From: Candidatus Saccharimonadales bacterium
Lineage (GTDB): Bacteria; Patescibacteriota; Saccharimonadia; Saccharimonadales; EFPC-124
Assembly (NCBI GenBank): GCA_050730875.1
Contig: JBOHNX010000001.1
Coordinates: 77,827 to 141,826 of the forward strand
Direction: 5' to 3'
Length of the DNA stretch: 64,000 bases
In this document: one piece after another, positions 27,648-36,251 of the stretch
How positions within the stretch are numbered: position 1 is the stretch's first letter
How the letters are laid out: each line of letters starts with the position of its first letter
The notes under the pieces: generated by a model
What the model saw: the letters and a program-made list of their open reading frames with translations, nothing else
Told to the model about the DNA's origin: nothing
Databases searched by the model: none
Position numbers and translations under genes: made by a program

Positions 27648-30239
27648 ATGAAGCAGATTTTGACAAAGATTTTTGGTGACCCTCAGGCAAAAACCGTGCG
27701 CCGGTTGCGCAAAAAAGTTCGCCAGGTAAACCTGCAAGCTGATAAGTACAAGGCAATGAAATTGCCCGAGCTAAAAAAGCAAACGGCAGTTCTAAAAGAG
27801 AAGCTCGAAAAGGGTAAGGCCCTCGACGACATTATGCCAGACGCATTCGCATTAGTACGCGAAGCAAGTGACCGCGTGCTTAAAATGCGTCATTTCGATG
27901 TACAGCTTATTGGTGGTATGGCTCTGCACGAAGGCAACGTCGCCGAGATGAAAACCGGTGAAGGTAAAACCCTGGTGGCAACACTGCCAAGCTACCTTAA
28001 CGCACTCAGCGGCAAAGGCGTCCACATCGTTACTGTAAACGACTACCTGGCACAGCGTGATGCCGGTTGGATGGGGCCGCTGTATGACTTTTTGGGCCTG
28101 AGCGTCGGTGTAATTATTGCTGACCAGTCGTTCTTATTTGATTCGAAGTTTGATAACGCCGCACACGAAGACCCACGCATGCGTAAGCTTAAACCATGCA
28201 CTCGTAAAGAGGCATACGAAGCTGACATTACATATGGCACCAACAACGAATTTGGTTTTGACTACTTGCGCGACAACATGGTCAACGAAGTAGAGTTGCT
28301 ACGCCAGCGTGAGCTGAACTTTGCCATCGTCGACGAGGTTGACTCAATCTTAATCGACGAAGCCCGAACGCCGCTTATTATTTCGGCGCCTTCTAGCGAC
28401 AGCGGTTCGAACTACCAGACCTTTGCGTCGATCGCGCGCAAACTAAAACCAGAGGATTATATTCTGGATGAAAAGCGCCGTGCTGTAAGCCTTACTGACG
28501 AAGGTATCGAAAAAGCCGAAAAATTACTGGGTATCGGCAACTTCTACGCGCCTGAAAACGTCCGCGCCGTGTACCACATGGAGCAAGCGCTGAAAGCCGA
28601 GACATTATTTAAGCGCGACAAAGACTACGTTGTGACAGGTGATAGCGAAGTCGTTATCGTCGACGAGTTTACTGGCCGTTTAATGCAAGGTCGCCGCTAC
28701 AACGAAGGTCTGCACCAGGCGATCGAAGCCAAAGAAAGTGTGCCCGTGCTGCAGGAAAGCATGACGCTCGCAACCATTTCGTTCCAAAACTACTTCCGTC
28801 TGTACGACAAACTGAGTGGTATGACCGGTACGGCCTACACCGAAGCGGAAGAATTTGCCCAGATCTATGGCCTTGATGTCGTGCAGATTCCACCAAACAG
28901 GCCAATGGTTCGTGAAGACCGAACGGATATGATTTTTAAGACCGAAGCTGGTAAATTCCGCGCCATCATTGAAGCAGTGAGGGAATACCACAAAGAAGGT
29001 CGGCCAGTTCTTATTGGTAGCGCCTCAATTGAAAAAAACGAACTACTCGGCCAAGCGCTGGCTAAGGCTGGCATTCCGCACGAAACGCTCAACGCTAAAA
29101 ACAACGAGCGTGAAGCCGCGATTATCGCCAAAGCCGGCCAAAAGGGTGCAGTGACGCTTGCGACCAACATTGCCGGTCGTGGTACCGACATTGTGCTAGA
29201 TAGCGATGTGAAAGAACTCGGTGGGTTAGTGGTGATCGGTTCGGAGCGTCACGAGGCTCGCCGCATTGACAATCAGTTGCGCGGACGTTGTGGTCGCCAA
29301 GGTGACCCAGGCTTGACCCAGTTCTACGTAAGCTGCGAAGACGACCTGATGCGTATTTTCCAGGGTGATCGTATTCGCGCACTTATGGACCGCTTGGGTG
29401 TAGATGAAGACACGCCAATCCAAAACCGCGCCGTCAGCAAAACACTGGAGAACGCACAGAAGAAAGTGGAAGGCTACAACTTCGACGCTCGTAAAAACGT
29501 GGTGCAGTACGACAACGTCATGAACCGCCATCGCCGCGCCGTGTACAGCATACGCCGCGAAATTTTGCTTGGCGAAGATATTAGTGACGAAATTAAGCGG
29601 CTCATCGAAGAAGAGGCGTATTCGCTTACAGCGGTATCAGCCAAAGAAAAACCAGACTTTGCAACCGAGCTCGCGACGATTATTCCGCTAGACAGTAAGA
29701 CACTCAAGAAGCTTGAAAAAGAAGAAAAAGATAAAGTCCGTACCGCAGATGCCCTAAAAGCGGCTAAAAAATTGTACAAAGCACGCGAAAAAGAACTTAG
29801 CGGCGAAATTATGCGCAAAATTGAGCGTGAGATTTATCTGCAAGTTATGGATACGCTTTGGATGCAACACCTAGAAAACATGCAGCACCTACGCGAAGGT
29901 ATTCATTGGCGCAGTGTTGGTCAGCGTGACCCACTGGTAGAATATCGGCGCGAATCACAGCACTTGTTTGATCAGTTGCAGGGAACGCTGCGTGAAGAAG
30001 TTGTGCGCGCCATCTTCCATGTGCACAAACAAGACGTTCGCAAAGCCGAAGAAGAGAACTTCAACACCGAATTAACCCGCGCTGCCGAGCACTCGGTAGA
30101 GCAGGGTGTCAATGAAGTTAGCCAACCAGAGCGCAAAGTACGTTTTGACACCAGCGATGACCAATCTGCCAAGAAGAAAAAAGAACAACTTCGCAAAAAG
30201 CGCAAAAAAGAGCGCAAGAATCGCAAAAAGCGCCACTAA
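27648..30239 (+). CDS. secA: Preprotein translocase ATPase SecA
   Basis: MKTGEGKTLVATLP (Walker A), DEVDSILIDEARTPLIIS, TNIAGRGTDI and RGRCGRQGDPG. Lys/Arg-rich C-terminus with no Cys. Confidence 0.97.
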   Translation: MKQILTKIFGDPQAKTVRRLRKKVRQVNLQADKYKAMKLPELKKQTAVLKEKLEKGKALDDIMPDAFALVREASDRVLKMRHFDVQLIGGMALHEGNVAEMKTGEGKTLVATLPSYLNALSGKGVHIVTVNDYLAQRDAGWMGPLYDFLGLSVGVIIADQSFLFDSKFDNAAHEDPRMRKLKPCTRKEAYEADITYGTNNEFGFDYLRDNMVNEVELLRQRELNFAIVDEVDSILIDEARTPLIISAPSSDSGSNYQTFASIARKLKPEDYILDEKRRAVSLTDEGIEKAEKLLGIGNFYAPENVRAVYHMEQALKAETLFKRDKDYVVTGDSEVVIVDEFTGRLMQGRRYNEGLHQAIEAKESVPVLQESMTLATISFQNYFRLYDKLSGMTGTAYTEAEEFAQIYGLDVVQIPPNRPMVREDRTDMIFKTEAGKFRAIIEAVREYHKEGRPVLIGSASIEKNELLGQALAKAGIPHETLNAKNNEREAAIIAKAGQKGAVTLATNIAGRGTDIVLDSDVKELGGLVVIGSERHEARRIDNQLRGRCGRQGDPGLTQFYVSCEDDLMRIFQGDRIRALMDRLGVDEDTPIQNRAVSKTLENAQKKVEGYNFDARKNVVQYDNVMNRHRRAVYSIRREILLGEDISDEIKRLIEEEAYSLTAVSAKEKPDFATELATIIPLDSKTLKKLEKEEKDKVRTADALKAAKKLYKAREKELSGEIMRKIEREIYLQVMDTLWMQHLENMQHLREGIHWRSVGQRDPLVEYRRESQHLFDQLQGTLREEVVRAIFHVHKQDVRKAEEENFNTELTRAAEHSVEQGVNEVSQPERKVRFDTSDDQSAKKKKEQLRKKRKKERKNRKKRH

Positions 30240-30301
30240 AAGTGGTAGGATAGGTAACAGTTATTTTATAAACTGTTAAACCTAAAGGATCTTTGTTACC
30301 A

Positions 30302-31588
30302 ATGAAGCACTCAGTCGAAGAAGTGGTGTTAGGTAATGGCAGCCGCGGGCTGCTTATACACGTTCCAAATGCCACTGTTACGAGCTACGATTTTGAATTC
30401 CGCGCGGGCAACCAGTATGCTCGCGCCGAAGATGTGTACGAAACGCCGCACATTATGGAACACATGGTCTTTGGCGCAAACCAAACGTACAAATCATCGT
30501 TGGCATTTAAGGCGGAATTCCAGAAAAACGGCGCTCATTACAACGCATCGACTGCCGACACCAGCCTCCGTTACTACACAACCTGCGCCGACTTTGAGTG
30601 GGATCGAATTAATGATTTGCTTCGTTTAGCTATTACCAAACCGATGTTCTTGGACAGTGAGTTCCAGGCAGAATCGGGGAACGTTAAGGAAGAACTTACC
30701 GGCTACCTGAACAGTCACAACCGTGTATTATGGCAACGCCTCGCACAAGCCAGCGGCGAAAAATTCCTAACCGATTCGCAACGCCTGAAAGTTATGGACA
30801 ACGTAAAGTTGGACGACATTAAAGAACACTACAAGCGCACACATACCAGCGACAACATGCGTTTTGTTATCGCTGGTAATCTAAAAGAAGAGCGCCGTAA
30901 CAATTTGCTTGATAGTCTCGAAAAATGGCAGCTATCGCGTGGCGAACGCTTTGCGGTGCAAAAAGAGGAGCTGGTTGGATCGCCCGAACCAGTGCGTGTT
31001 TCGCGCAAAGAGGTAGAGAGCCTTATTTTTGCGTTGAGTATTCAAGCTAACTGGCGCCTCAAAGACAGCGAACACGACTCGATGAACGCACTCAACCATA
31101 TGCTAACCGGTACGCTACATTCGCTTATTTTAGGTAAAGCGCGCGAACGCGGCCTGACATACGGCATGTGGTCGGATGTGCTGGTGAGCGAAAGCACCAG
31201 CGCCTGGGAATTTGGCGGCCAAGTAAGCCTTAAAAACGCGCCAAAGCTGTTCGAAATTATTGTTGAAGAGGTGCAGAAAATCCGCACTGGCAAGATTAAA
31301 AACGAAGATATCGACGCTGCCAAGCAATTTGCGCTCGGCAAACACCAAATGGGTTGCCAAACAGTTGGCGCAATCGTGCAGTGGTACGGCGGCCGCTACT
31401 TCTTTGATGGCTACGTCGATGACTACATGAAACGCCCCAAAGCAATCGAAGCAATCAATAAAGAAGCAATCGTCAAAGCCGCAAACGACTTTATCGGTGG
31501 CAAACGGTGGGCGCTCGGTGGGCTAGGGCAGTGCTCGGAAGAACAGCTGAAAGATCTACACCAACAAGTCGCTGTATTATTTGAATAA
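30302..31588 (+). CDS. M16 (pitrilysin/insulinase) family zinc peptidase
   Basis: Inverted zinc motif HIMEHMVF (HxxEH) near the N-terminus, and two-domain M16 length. ATG 30302 is preferred over TTG 30293. Confidence 0.85.
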   Translation: MKHSVEEVVLGNGSRGLLIHVPNATVTSYDFEFRAGNQYARAEDVYETPHIMEHMVFGANQTYKSSLAFKAEFQKNGAHYNASTADTSLRYYTTCADFEWDRINDLLRLAITKPMFLDSEFQAESGNVKEELTGYLNSHNRVLWQRLAQASGEKFLTDSQRLKVMDNVKLDDIKEHYKRTHTSDNMRFVIAGNLKEERRNNLLDSLEKWQLSRGERFAVQKEELVGSPEPVRVSRKEVESLIFALSIQANWRLKDSEHDSMNALNHMLTGTLHSLILGKARERGLTYGMWSDVLVSESTSAWEFGGQVSLKNAPKLFEIIVEEVQKIRTGKIKNEDIDAAKQFALGKHQMGCQTVGAIVQWYGGRYFFDGYVDDYMKRPKAIEAINKEAIVKAANDFIGGKRWALGGLGQCSEEQLKDLHQQVAVLFE

Positions 31589-31604
31589 TTTCTAAAAAAT
31601 TCTT

Positions 31605-31631
31605 GTCTGGGGCCAAAATGCGACCCCAGAC
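31605..31631. terminator. Hairpin between convergent genes (possible bidirectional terminator)
   Basis: GTCTGGGG (31605-12) pairs with CCCCAGAC (31624-31), with an 11-nt loop. No strong T-run. Confidence 0.5.
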
Positions 31632-31645
31632 AGCGAACGAATGGG

Positions 31646-31941
31646 TTACGTGCGCACGGCGATTATCTTAGCGTCACCTCGATTCGTGTTGCGGCACTGA
31701 GCGCCCTGGCCGTGTTTGCCCTGGTAATCTTCAGTGCATTTCCAGGCGAACGGGTCGCCCTTGAACGGGAACGGGTCGAAGGGGCCGTCGCAGTGGCAGA
31801 AGTTCTTGATGATCCACAAAGCTTCACCGCAGGTCACGTTCTCGGCGAGAACACGCACGGGTCCGCCAAATTCTCCATTCGGCCAGACGAACTGCGTTTC
31901 CTCAACCCGACCGCATTTCTGCTCGACGGGCTGCAGAGCGC
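31646..31941 (-). other. Start-less open frame (-1 relative to the lipase) encoding a Cys-rich C-terminal segment
   Basis: Own translation: the -1 frame is open from 32050 down to the stop at 31646. It reads ...KLQKDEKVKELVVNGIKKYLSALQPVEQKCGRVEETQFVWPNGEFGGPVRVLAENVTCGEALWIIKNFCHCDGPFDPFPFKGDPFAWKC..., with no ATG/GTG/TTG before 31858. Confidence 0.45.
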
Positions 31942-32763
31942 TCAGGTATTTTTTGATTCCGTTGACGACCAGTTCTTTGACTTTTTCGTCTTTTTGGAGC
32001 TTCGTCCGTCGGTCAGGGCAGAGTGCTTCAAAACGATATAATCGCTTTCGCTATCGACATCAATGACCGTGAGAAACATTGGCACTTGCATGGTCAGGTC
32101 ACCTGCGATTGTGAGCACGGGTATGCCCGCCGGCCACGGACGTAGACGTTTAAGCTCATCGGATCCAACGCGCAAGCCCAATGTGGCTTCGGAGGGTTGG
32201 CAAAGAGGTGTTGGTGAGCCTGTGACAAACTCAATTATCCACTTACATACGCCCAGCACATTGACCAGATCGTTTGCCGCTCCGCTTCCCTTGTAGGGCG
32301 TTCCGATGGTAACCACCAAGCCCAGATCGTCGGCGACTTTGCGGCCATTGATGACCTGGCTTGCGGCGTACTTCGTTGCCAACCCACCCATGGAGTGGGC
32401 GACCACAATGATTTTGCCTGGACCGCCCGCTGCACGCGACGACTCTGCCCGACAGGCAATTTCCTTTGCCAGACGGCCGCCGAGGTTTTCGAAGTCGACC
32501 CAGCGTTTGCGCTCGTATTCGTAGTCATACCACGTAGAGAACAAACGATCATCTCTATCGAGTGTGTTGTACAGCGATTTCGGATTCTGCAGGTCCCACA
32601 TGTCCTTACTGCTGTTGAATCCATGCACAAACAACACCGGCATCCGCGTGCCAACATCTGGCAAGCAGCCCGTCTGTGCCAGCGCCTTCGCTGGTACCAT
32701 CAGAGAAGCAAGCACGAACAGGGCGACCAGAAGGCCGCCCCGCAATGCCAATTTGTACGGCAA
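31942..32763 (-). CDS. Secreted alpha/beta-hydrolase (lipase/esterase), frame interrupted near the 3' end
   Basis: TTG start. Signal peptide MPYKLALRGGLLVALFVLASLMVPAKALA, PVLFVHGF, nucleophile elbow VVAHSMGG, and SDYIVLKHSAL. The ORF stops just after two AAAAAG runs. Confidence 0.75.
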   Translation of the reverse strand: MPYKLALRGGLLVALFVLASLMVPAKALAQTGCLPDVGTRMPVLFVHGFNSSKDMWDLQNPKSLYNTLDRDDRLFSTWYDYEYERKRWVDFENLGGRLAKEIACRAESSRAAGGPGKIIVVAHSMGGLATKYAASQVINGRKVADDLGLVVTIGTPYKGSGAANDLVNVLGVCKWIIEFVTGSPTPLCQPSEATLGLRVGSDELKRLRPWPAGIPVLTIAGDLTMQVPMFLTVIDVDSESDYIVLKHSALTDGRSSKKTKKSKNWSSTESKNT

Positions 32764-32768
32764 TTATC

Positions 32769-33200
32769 TCACCTCGCAACTGTCGTAAGGATGTACCAGT
32801 GACTGTTTTCCTTTGCCAAGTACACTATATGCACCTGGCCGTTCGACAGCTTAGCGTCAACTGTAGCTTTGCTGTCGTCGCCATCTTGTAGCTTGAACGT
32901 CTCGGGCTGGAAGGCAATAGTTATACCTCCCGGCAGCGCTGGCTGACCCGCCTTGACGTACGATTCGCGCAGGAAGCTGGCGAAGGCCAGGCTCTGCTCT
33001 TCCAGAGAACTACCGGGTTTGTTCAGGATCTTTTCAAGATCCTGCAAGTCCTGGCGGTAGTCCAGGCTGGATGTTGGACTCGATGCCGCTTTCGGTGGCT
33101 CCGACTCGGCGCCACGCGGCCACCAGAGCCAGGCTGCACCGAGTACTAGTACTGCCAGTACGGCAACCAGCAACACGATGATACTTCGTTTTGATCGCAT
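32769..33200 (-). CDS. N-terminally membrane-anchored hypothetical protein (143 aa), upstream partner of the lipase
   Basis: MRSKRSIIVLLVAVLAVLVLGAAWLWW anchor. SD AAGGA lies 6 nt upstream. The stop is 5 nt from the lipase start. Confidence 0.6.
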   Translation of the reverse strand: MRSKRSIIVLLVAVLAVLVLGAAWLWWPRGAESEPPKAASSPTSSLDYRQDLQDLEKILNKPGSSLEEQSLAFASFLRESYVKAGQPALPGGITIAFQPETFKLQDGDDSKATVDAKLSNGQVHIVYLAKENSHWYILTTVAR

Positions 33201-33305
33201 CTCACATCCTTTCGTTCGCTTTGTTAATGTACCAATCGGCCTATCCGATTAGTGAGCAAATGGATATTACAACGATTTCGTGTAAAAGATCAAGGATCTT
33301 TACAA

Positions 33306-33830
33306 TTACAATGCAAAATATATTGTCCAGTATTGTTCATCGCCAATCTCAATAATATGTATCTTAGGAGATGGATTTAAGTGGTAGGTTTTAGTTATAG
33401 TTTTTGAATCATCGTAATATGTGATACCAAAATCTTGCCCGCTTTTTGTCCTAAAAAATAAAGTTCTGTTGCTGAAACCAGAATTAGAACTTTGCACGTT
33501 AGAAGTGTGCGTGGGGGCTGCCTTCTTAAAGTATTTTTGTACTTCCTCAATGGTCATATCAGTTCCAAAGTAAAAGGACGACCCTGGCTGACTGCCGCAT
33601 AAAGGATACCAACAACCATAATCAGTCCTGCCTACATATTCAAAGCCTGGCCCCAAATCTTTCGGCAGAACTCGATTTACGTATGGGTACGCCAGTGAGC
33701 CGAGCCAATAGATAGGAAGGGCCAATACAATTAGTACGGCATAGGTTCCTGGATCCTTGAGTTTCTTTTTTATGGTTTCGCCAACGGCCATATCACATTC
33801 ATAGTAACGCATTTTCGTTGTTTTTTGCAC
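33306..33830 (-). CDS. AT-rich hypothetical membrane-anchored protein (174 aa)
   Basis: One TM segment (YAVLIVLALPIYWLGSLAY) then a Y/F/S/T-rich domain. Start is GTG 33830 or a downstream ATG. No motif recognised. Confidence 0.55.
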   Translation of the reverse strand: MQKTTKMRYYECDMAVGETIKKKLKDPGTYAVLIVLALPIYWLGSLAYPYVNRVLPKDLGPGFEYVGRTDYGCWYPLCGSQPGSSFYFGTDMTIEEVQKYFKKAAPTHTSNVQSSNSGFSNRTLFFRTKSGQDFGITYYDDSKTITKTYHLNPSPKIHIIEIGDEQYWTIYFAL

Positions 33831-33849
33831 GGAATGTATACTAAGGGTA

Positions 33850-35145
33850 ATGAGTAAAAAAGTTGCAATTGCGGGTTTTGGGTCTGAGGGCTTGAGTGCC
33901 TACCGTTACTTCAAGGCCCAAGGGGCAGATATTACGATTTTCGACGAAAAAAAGCAGCCGAATCAGCCGGTGCCGGAAGGCGCTGAATTTGTGTGGGGCA
34001 AGGATTGCTTTGCTGATCTGCGTGGTTTTGATGTTGTGATGCGTTTTCCGGCGCTGCGGCCGGATCGAATTACGACCGATGGCGAAATGAGCTCGGTTAT
34101 TAAAGAGTTTTTTAAAGCCTGCCCCGCGCCAATAATTGGCGTGACGGGGAGTAAGGGTAAGGGGACAACTTCTAGCCTGATCCACCTGATGCTCAATAAC
34201 GCGGGCAAAACCACGCACATCGCGGGCAATATCGGCGTGCCGGCGCTCGATATTCTGCCGGATATCAAAAAGGATGATGTGGTAGTGCTGGAGTTGAGTA
34301 GCTTCCAGCTATGGGACTTGCAACAAAGTCCGCATGTTGCCGTGGTGCTGATGATCGAGCCAGACCACCTAGATGTTCACAAAGATTTAATTGAATACAT
34401 CGGCGCCAAAAGTAACATTGTCCGCTGGCAAACGGCTGATGACGTGACAGTATACTTACCTGGCAACCATCTGACTGAGCAAATTGCTATGCAGGGTAAG
34501 GGTAAGAAAACTCCATACACCAAGGCACCTGGCGCGCATGTAGAAGATGGTTTTATTGTGATTGATGAGCACAAAATTTGTGCAATTTCCGACATAGCTT
34601 TGCCTGGCAAACACAACGTCGATAACGCCTGCGCCGCGGTTACTGCCGCTTGGCAATTCACGCAAGATGCAGACGCGCTAGCCAAGGCACTGCGCGAATT
34701 TAAAGGGTTAGACCATCGATTAAAACTTGTACGCGAACTGAATGATGTTCGTTTTTACGACGACAGCATTGCTACCACGCCAGGCTCGGCCATAGCTGCG
34801 CTGCATGCATTCCCTGAGCCAAAGGTGCTGATTTTAGGTGGTTCCGACAAAGGCGCCGACTTTACCGAACTTGCCGAAACCATTGTCGAAAGCGACCTGC
34901 GTGCAGTGGTCCTGATTGGTGCCATGCGCCACAAATTGCACGAAGCAATTACGGCCGCAGGGTACAAAGGGCCGGTAGAGTTCTTTGACGAGCACAGCAC
35001 TATGGAGCAAATAGTCACCCGTGCAGCCAAGCAAGCAAAATCTGGCGATGTAGTTATACTTTCGCCAGCCTGTGCCAGCTTCGATATGTTTAAAGACTAC
35101 AAAGATCGCGGCGAACAGTTTATAGCTGCCGTTGGGCGCCTATAA
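33850..35145 (+). CDS. murD: UDP-N-acetylmuramoylalanine--D-glutamate ligase
   Basis: N-terminal Rossmann segment VAIAGFGSEG, Mur ligase P-loop GVTGSKGKGTT, DHRLKLV...YDDSIATTPGSAIAAL. TGtATACT (33835-42) ends 7 nt before the ATG. Confidence 0.85.
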   Translation: MSKKVAIAGFGSEGLSAYRYFKAQGADITIFDEKKQPNQPVPEGAEFVWGKDCFADLRGFDVVMRFPALRPDRITTDGEMSSVIKEFFKACPAPIIGVTGSKGKGTTSSLIHLMLNNAGKTTHIAGNIGVPALDILPDIKKDDVVVLELSSFQLWDLQQSPHVAVVLMIEPDHLDVHKDLIEYIGAKSNIVRWQTADDVTVYLPGNHLTEQIAMQGKGKKTPYTKAPGAHVEDGFIVIDEHKICAISDIALPGKHNVDNACAAVTAAWQFTQDADALAKALREFKGLDHRLKLVRELNDVRFYDDSIATTPGSAIAALHAFPEPKVLILGGSDKGADFTELAETIVESDLRAVVLIGAMRHKLHEAITAAGYKGPVEFFDEHSTMEQIVTRAAKQAKSGDVVILSPACASFDMFKDYKDRGEQFIAAVGRL

Positions 35146-35162
35146 GTGGTAGGCTAGAGGTA

Positions 35163-36251
35163 ATGGACGAACTTATTAAAAAAGCCAAAGCGCTTCATAA
35201 AGATGTAGCGGCTGGGCTTAAAAAATTAGGTGCCGATAAGATTCAGGCTGAACTTGATGAGCTACAGACGCAAATGGCTAAGCCTGATTTTTGGCAGGAT
35301 GTCATTACGGCGCAAAAAGTAGTGCAGCGTGAAGCTAAGCTGCGTACGCAGCTCGATCCGTGGCAGCGTTTGGCTCAGGATACAGAAGATGTCAGTGAAC
35401 TCATGGCAGTCGGCGACGTCAGCATGGAGGTTGAGCTTGCCCAGCAGCTTGCAGATTTAGAGCGGCGCTATGGCGAGCTTAAGCACGAGCTGCAGTTTTC
35501 TGGCAAATATGATGACCACGACGCAATTTTGCGCCTAAGCGCCGGCGCCGGTGGGACCGATGCTCAAGACTGGACCGAAATGTTGCTGCGCATGTACCTG
35601 CGTTGGTCTGAAAAAAATGGCAATAAAACAGAACTCATCGAGGAATCACGCGGCGAAGAAGCGGGCATAAAAAGTGCGGTCATAAGTGTGAGCGGCGCGT
35701 ATGCTTACGGCAAGCTGAAAGGGGAGCACGGCGTGCATCGTTTAGTGCGCCTTAGCCCTTTTAACGCGGATAATCTGCGTCAAACTAGCTTTGCCTTGGT
35801 TGAGGTTTTACCACAAATCGATGCACCGGAAGAAGTTGAACTCGACGAAAAAGACTTACGCGTAGACGTCTTTCGAGCCGGCGGCCACGGTGGCCAAAGC
35901 GTGAACACTACCGATTCGGCCGTGCGCATCACGCACATCCCAACCGGCATCGTGGTGAGCATCCAAAACGAACGCTCCCAACTGCAAAACAAAGAAACCG
36001 CGTTCAAAATTTTACGCTCAAAACTTGCGCAGCTGCAGCTTGAGCAACACAAAGAAACGTTGGCTGAGCTAAAAGGCCCAACCAAATCAGCCGAATGGGG
36101 CAGCCAAATCCGCAACTACGTGCTGCATCCATACACATTAGTAAAAGACACCCGCACCGGCCACGAAGAACGAGATGCAAACAAAGTACTGGATGGTAGC
36201 TTGAGCGGTTTTATCGAGGCATATCTAAGTCGCACCGAAAAAAGCGCTTAG
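35163..36251 (+). CDS. prfB: Peptide chain release factor 2 (uninterrupted frame)
   Basis: SPF tripeptide (RLVRLSPFNADN) and [23 protein letters not shown]. No in-frame UGA or +1 frameshift site. Confidence 0.95.
   Translation: MDELIKKAKALHKDVAAGLKKLGADKIQAELDELQTQMAKPDFWQDVITAQKVVQREAKLRTQLDPWQRLAQDTEDVSELMAVGDVSMEVELAQQLADLERRYGELKHELQFSGKYDDHDAILRLSAGAGGTDAQDWTEMLLRMYLRWSEKNGNKTELIEESRGEEAGIKSAVISVSGAYAYGKLKGEHGVHRLVRLSPFNADNLRQTSFALVEVLPQIDAPEEVELDEKDLRVDVFRAGGHGGQSVNTTDSAVRITHIPTGIVVSIQNERSQLQNKETAFKILRSKLAQLQLEQHKETLAELKGPTKSAEWGSQIRNYVLHPYTLVKDTRTGHEERDANKVLDGSLSGFIEAYLSRTEKSA

Follow-up and report, generated by a model that had tools for sequence, protein, structure and literature searches.

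The closest described relatives of the gene analysed here are the bacterial family I lipases, such as LipA of Burkholderia cepacia and Burkholderia glumae (family I.2) and LipA of Bacillus subtilis (family I.4), with which it has the HG motif (VHGF) and the A-H-S-M-G-G motif in common. In alpha/beta hydrolases the catalytic triad follows the order nucleophile, acid, histidine, with the histidine in a loop past the last core strand. In family I.2, as described for PDB 2es4, a small gene for a membrane-anchored partner is adjacent to the lipase gene, as it is here. Profile matches of the lipase in the PDB were 1qge, 1cvl, 1hqd, and 1i6w, and a Foldseek search with the model of an intact homolog (P0024) found 7cof, 2lip, and 1ys1 with E-values of about 1e-8 (Burkholderia family I.2 lipases and cholesterol esterase). 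Sequence identity to the solved lipases is, however, just 11-20%. Unlike family I lipases, the intact members of the present family add a C-terminal domain of about 80 aa and have the partner gene upstream, and the copy studied here is out of frame and lacks the strand and the loop for the third triad residue.

The frame change itself can be compared with two known situations. In dnaX-type and IS3/IS911-type -1 frameshifting (A_AAA_AAG) an in-frame AAA AAG is likewise found together with an open -1 frame. Here, in contrast, there is no complete heptamer, upstream Shine-Dalgarno sequence, notable downstream fold, or conservation in homologs, and what the -1 frame yields is a protein damaged by a deletion instead of a functional isoform. 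Ordinary pseudogenes created by a frameshifting deletion show the same single lesion, the same full-length single-frame homologs, the same coding-like downstream remnant, and a terminator retained past the old stop; no notable difference from them was found. The gene is very probably a recent lipase/esterase pseudogene that arose through one deletion of 3n+1 bases, and not a case of programmed frameshifting.

The whole stretch of DNA that was analysed, 64 kb in length, is called the window. Its lipase ORF lies on the minus strand (32763-31942, 273 aa, TTG start), starts with a signal-peptide-like segment, contains the lipase motifs VHGF and AHSMGG, and belongs to DUF676 / alpha-beta hydrolases (Pfam E 1e-9; DUF676 and Abhydrolase_6 above cut-offs; PGAP1-like). 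The protein is on record from a 556-kb contig of a Candidatus Saccharimonadales MAG and is present in the Logan collection too. NCBI lists the ORF as an ordinary CDS, "alpha/beta fold hydrolase"; with no close relative to flag the truncation, automatic annotation takes what is left for a normal CDS. The part still in the original frame (32005-32763, minus strand) was delimited by ORF translation, Pfam, and a match to profile positions 12-258 (E 1e-71), and carries the signal peptide, the AHSMGG elbow (Ser124), the lid region, and the acid Asp241, up to ...SALTDG. Past this point the lipase frame reads ...HSALTDGRSS-K-K-T-K-K-SKNWSSTESKNT via TCC AAA AAG ACG AAA AAG, and the ORF ends in ...HSALTDGRSSKKTKKSKNWSSTESKNT with the stop TGA at 31944-31942. 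By translation and profile, the tail at 31942-32004 (minus strand), RSSKKTKKSKNWSSTESKNT followed by this TGA, is an out-of-frame reading of the DNA that originally encoded the last helix; in the homolog alignment 0 homolog residues aligned to it.

In the -1 frame, a TAG at 32053-32051 is followed by 134 sense codons that stay open from 32050 to a TAA at 31648-31646, and the first ATG, GTG, or TTG is a GTG at 31858. The initial annotation, made from the letters and their open reading frames, had described the same lipase frame through both AAA AAG pairs to a stop at 31942, the same TAG, open stretch, and peptide in the -1 frame, and the same lack of a start codon before 31858; translation agrees on each of these. 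The other two frames of the downstream DNA contain 3 and 5 stops. At about 55% GC an open -1 frame of such length would be expected by chance in roughly less than 1% of cases, a rough estimate, and its length is explained by its homology with lipase homologs. As an independent gene, the 70-aa ORF starting at the GTG (31858-31646) was rejected, as the initial annotation had anticipated: it amounts to half a domain, and its sole Shine-Dalgarno-like GGAG is badly spaced.

The -1 frame is, judging from its similarity to homologs, the original 3' end of the lipase gene. This 3' remnant (31646-31999, minus strand; translation, blastp, profile, and codon-position GC) contains the last helix of the hydrolase fold and a Cys-containing alpha+beta C-terminal domain. 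In a blastp search of 94 homologs, the -1 peptide matched residues 289-388 of P0024 (397 aa) with 32% identity over 104 aa (E 7e-8), and the homolog alignment showed that it kept the conserved I..YL, two Cys, one Trp, and one Gly. The GC content at the three codon positions is 0.60/0.39/0.70 in the downstream -1 frame and 0.59/0.44/0.64 in the upstream lipase frame. A terminator scan detected a strong hairpin resembling an intrinsic terminator (31604-31632, minus strand; 12-bp stem, T run) 14 nt past the stop of the -1 frame, and nothing comparable past the stop of the lipase frame. The hairpin marks the end of the original transcription unit. A convergent M16 peptidase gene (30293-31588, plus strand) ends 16 bases from it, and the scan gave no plus-strand site of terminator type between the peptidase stop and the hairpin.

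The deletion junction (31990-32007, minus strand) was located from HMM coordinates, segment lengths, and alignments, with a profile built from the 8 closest intact homologs and the query left out. Profile positions 12-258 match the lipase frame, the last matched residue being G265 (GGA, 32007-32005). Positions 292-394 match the -1 frame (E 7e-9), beginning with the Leu of LQKDEKV (CTC, 31999-31997). Two codons separate the matched stretches in the translations, and five bases separate them in the DNA. When all six frames of the 64-kb window were scanned, no match for profile positions 259-291 appeared in any of them. The stretch from SAL to I..YL spans 30 aa in the repaired window protein versus a median of 60 aa in 94 homologs, and Cys-x-His, which 93 of the 94 have in that stretch, is absent from the window protein. 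A disabling lesion relative to the intact homologs is present, with recognisable homology on both flanks.

These lengths suggest that about 28-33 codons plus one base were lost at the junction. The deleted length would be 3n+1, roughly 85-100 bases, because the downstream part is in the -1 frame. A single deletion of this kind accounts for the missing segment and the frame change together, and one event rather than two probably lies behind the lesion. The deletion also seems to be recent, because the downstream frame is free of stops and has kept its conserved residues. That frame is intact over 117 codons; an equally intact -1 frame would be seen in a region that is still expressed, which is a point against the pseudogene reading. 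The initial annotation had listed a recent inactivating indel among its options. The kind of event stands, but it was not a slip in a homopolymer: some 28-33 codons and one base appear to have gone.

Homologs were sought among 5.8 billion protein sequences. All 110 homologs on adequate contigs (the query protein excluded) are longer than 273 aa; the best-scoring ones have 390-620 aa, and the complete list ranges over 233-649 aa, with the shortest ones on short contigs. P0021, P0035, P0024, P0007, and P0047 are single-frame proteins that cover 90-98% of the repaired fusion. Alignment of orthologs had been proposed as a check for single-frame fusions, and the homologs did turn out to be single ORFs spanning both parts: no frameshifted homolog was found, and every informative homolog is a single ORF, the best relative being 44% identical. 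Apart from the protein itself, nothing in the 5.8 billion sequences exceeded 44% identity. GTDB species genomes and JGI metagenomes, pattern-scanned with the repaired protein, gave no hits, and an alignment-based scan for close orthologs found distant family members only. The lipase family occurs mainly in Saccharimonadales, other CPR bacteria, and Actinomycetota. A literature search on Saccharibacteria lipases or pseudogenes found nothing relevant.

Two other members of the family look damaged. P0027 (424 aa) has its stop 21 residues past the SAL motif and no Cys-x-His, and might be a second truncated copy. P0106 (259 aa) has an Arg/Ser-rich, apparently out-of-frame tail past the lid region. 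The accessory lipase may have decayed repeatedly within the family.

What the deletion removed can be read from the AlphaFold model of the intact homolog P0024 (mean pLDDT 86.8). The missing residues correspond to about 253-285 of P0024, which form a strand (259-267) and a loop with C281-E-H283 before the helix 290-307; the counterpart of this helix in the window is KDEKVKELVVNGIKKYL. C265, C281, and H283 (P0024 numbering) are invariant in a 28-sequence alignment. The window copy retains the nucleophile elbow AHSMGG with S124 (H123, S124, G126, and G127 are invariant in 95 sequences) and the acid D241 (SESDYIV), which aligns to a nearly invariant Asp. The histidine loop between the last core strand and the last helix is absent, as is an uninterrupted frame across the fold, which passes from the lipase frame to the -1 frame at about 32005-31997. 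Given that it is invariant, and given where it lies in the model, the His of Cys-x-His is probably the catalytic histidine. The assignment is based on these two properties because the hhalign comparison with B. subtilis LipA (97.5% probability, with an approximate LipA sequence), whose catalytic histidine is His156, aligned the N-terminal half only. The product from either frame lacks the core strand and the third triad residue, the likely catalytic His. Even a repaired frame would be predicted to give a dead enzyme, because the core strand and this His have been deleted.

The two AAAAAG runs (31995-31990 and 31986-31981, minus strand) are in frame as AAA AAG in the lipase ORF. In the original (-1) frame the bases read CAA AAA GAC GAA AAA GTC (Q-K-D-E-K-V), within the last hydrolase helix. 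KDEKVKELVVNGIKKYL aligns to KDSTVKEKVVAGIQKYL of P0039 and HDEAVQSLVVEQIKKYV of P0024, and the Q-K-D-E-K-V codons align to KDSTVKE and HDEAVQS of the same two proteins, respectively. The runs were judged coincidental. AAAAAG is over-represented in the window, with 108 occurrences versus 78 +/- 8 expected from dinucleotide-preserving shuffles, and in long ORFs it is found 44 times in codon phase 1, 25 times in phase 0, and 6 times in phase 2. The 53 long ORFs contain 25 in-frame AAA AAG between them, 5 of which extend to the complete A AAA AAG heptamer, for example in secA and murD. AAA AAG is neither avoided nor special in the source genome. Because the motif is common there, its presence beside an open -1 frame is not evidence for recoding. 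The C-terminus of SecA (secA, 27648-30239, plus strand) is an extremely Lys/Arg-rich tail, ...KKKKEQLRKKRKKERKNRKKRH, and the 3' end of the gene (30178-30230, plus strand) contains four AAAAAG in 55 bases, with two in-frame AAA AAG (codons 849 and 859).

The initial annotation had likened the AAA AAG pairs to the slippery site of dnaX and considered programmed -1 frameshifting with two isoforms. Such frameshifting, whether programmed or an adventitious rescue, would yield two proteins, the 273-aa product and an approximately 372-aa fusion. In its favour, no tetramer is more prone to shifting in E. coli than A_AAG (PMC4066793), the two in-frame copies are located just where the -1 homology begins, and correction of indels by translational frameshifting is a recognised phenomenon (PMC5009743). 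However, neither site is the bacterial -1 slippery heptamer, defined as X_XXZ_ZZN (PMC4066793): the contexts are C AAA AAG (TC C_AAA_AAG) and G AAA AAG (AC G_AAA_AAG), and both have no more than the A_AAG tetramer / AAA AAG hexamer. Tetramers without a stimulator shift at background level (0.147% versus 0.112%), and A_AAG needs a pseudoknot to reach a few percent (PMC4066793). The downstream stimulatory structure for which a search had been suggested does not stand out, the 96-nt downstream fold of -25.2 kcal/mol (z = -1.05) being matched in stability by 30 of 200 shuffles. No internal Shine-Dalgarno motif of the GGAG/AGGA type occurs within 20 nt upstream, no Rfam element matched at the frame break, 0 homologs are frameshifted, and ordinary genes of the window contain in-frame AAA AAG 25 times. 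The fusion would also lack strand beta8 and the Cys-x-His loop. The dnaX analogy did not survive these comparisons, and recoding at this site is very unlikely. A variant in which low-level slippage on the AAA AAG pairs partly rescues the deletion is extremely doubtful. It would produce a little of a signal-peptide-bearing, dead lipase-like protein with the Cys-containing domain, kept for a binding or decoy role; if true, retention for such a role would explain the intact downstream frame. Transcriptional slippage was rejected as a candidate, A runs of only 5 bases being too short for it.

Errors in the sequence and length changes in the A runs were weighed as well. The lipase gene might have lost its His loop naturally and in frame, with a one-base sequencing or assembly error on top, in which case the true gene would be one frame of about 372 codons for a non-catalytic lipase-like protein. 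The frame change within a few bases of an A5 run and the perfectly intact downstream frame are compatible with this. Against it, a 30-kb Logan contig of SRR27067773 is identical to window positions 28942-35763 (6822 of 6822 bases, junction included), and the two assemblies, made with different assemblers though probably from the same reads, agree base for base over these 6.8 kb. A5 is short for homopolymer errors. Long ORFs occur at a normal density in the window, where the 53 that reach 150 aa or more account for 51 of the 64 kb; indels are therefore not widespread in the assembly. Two independent events would be needed where one 3n+1 deletion is enough, and the product would still lack the core strand and the invariant His. 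An error of this kind is unlikely, and a plain homopolymer error, another option of the initial annotation, is made unlikely by the two identical assemblies and by the roughly 30 codons that are missing besides. The suggestion of slippage-based phase variation, with slipped-strand mispairing in the A runs toggling a full-length protein, has the two A5 runs near the frame change as its sole support. Phase-variable homopolymers typically have at least 7 bases, whereas these have 5; one sequence version is seen in both assemblies, and the 'on' state would still be without the catalytic loop. Phase variation is the least credible of the readings considered and was set aside.

Under the deletion reading, one ancestral ORF of about 400 codons, starting with the TTG (32763) and ending with the TAA (31646), would have encoded a secreted lipase/esterase, and the terminator (31632-31604) would have followed it. 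Some 85-100 bases (3n+1) would then have been deleted, and with them the last core beta strand and the Cys-x-His loop, and the same event would have moved the last helix and the C-terminal domain into the -1 frame. Translation would now stop at 31942 after about 19 out-of-frame codons. The AAA AAG pairs would result from reading the original KDEKV codons with the register off by one base, and would be no recoding signal.

The lipase is the last gene of a small same-strand group that starts with a 174-aa gene of unknown function (33306-33830, minus strand) and continues with a 143-aa gene (32769-33200, minus strand). The 143-aa protein has an N-terminal membrane anchor; its gene ends 5 nt before the lipase start, and the ribosome-binding site is AGGTGA. 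On three other contigs, which are Saccharimonadales-like, L002 (3582-5194), L005 (3582-5200), and L006 (2561-4362), genes of 136-140 aa adjoin intact lipases upstream, with a gap of 5-8 nt or an overlap, and the 143-aa protein is similar to these counterparts (E 8e-7). The 174-aa protein is 33% identical to a 161-aa neighbour in L002 (E 7e-15). By this similarity and gene order, the 143-aa protein is a conserved partner of this lipase family and the 174-aa protein a conserved neighbour in the cassette. The N-terminal extensions of P0027 and P0004 resemble the partner weakly (E 0.005 and 0.16, single comparisons), a hint that the partner domain may be fused to the lipase in these two proteins. 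The partner could be a lipase-specific helper or inhibitor, loosely like the membrane-anchored foldase of family I.2 lipases.

The partner and lipase pair (31646-33200) has a GC content of about 55-56% and a GC3 of 0.64-0.70, above its neighbours: GC3 is 0.53-0.56 in secA, the M16 peptidase gene, and murD, and 0.385 in the adjacent 174-aa gene. The intact homologs in L002 and L005 are found in another context, between topA and a sigma-70 gene. Because of this higher GC and the differing context of the intact homologs, the cassette may have been acquired or moved.

Ordinary, though probably real, the feature is very probably a pseudogene made by a frameshifting deletion. An in-frame AAA AAG beside an open -1 frame is no proof of recoding where the motif is common, and it is the alignment of intact homologs across the junction, with about 30 codons missing, that tells a deletion scar from a slippery site. 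The public "alpha/beta fold hydrolase, 273 aa" is what remains of a truncated gene, and counts of functional lipases should leave it out. For the organism the biological weight is small: one accessory gene is decaying in the reduced genome of an episymbiont.
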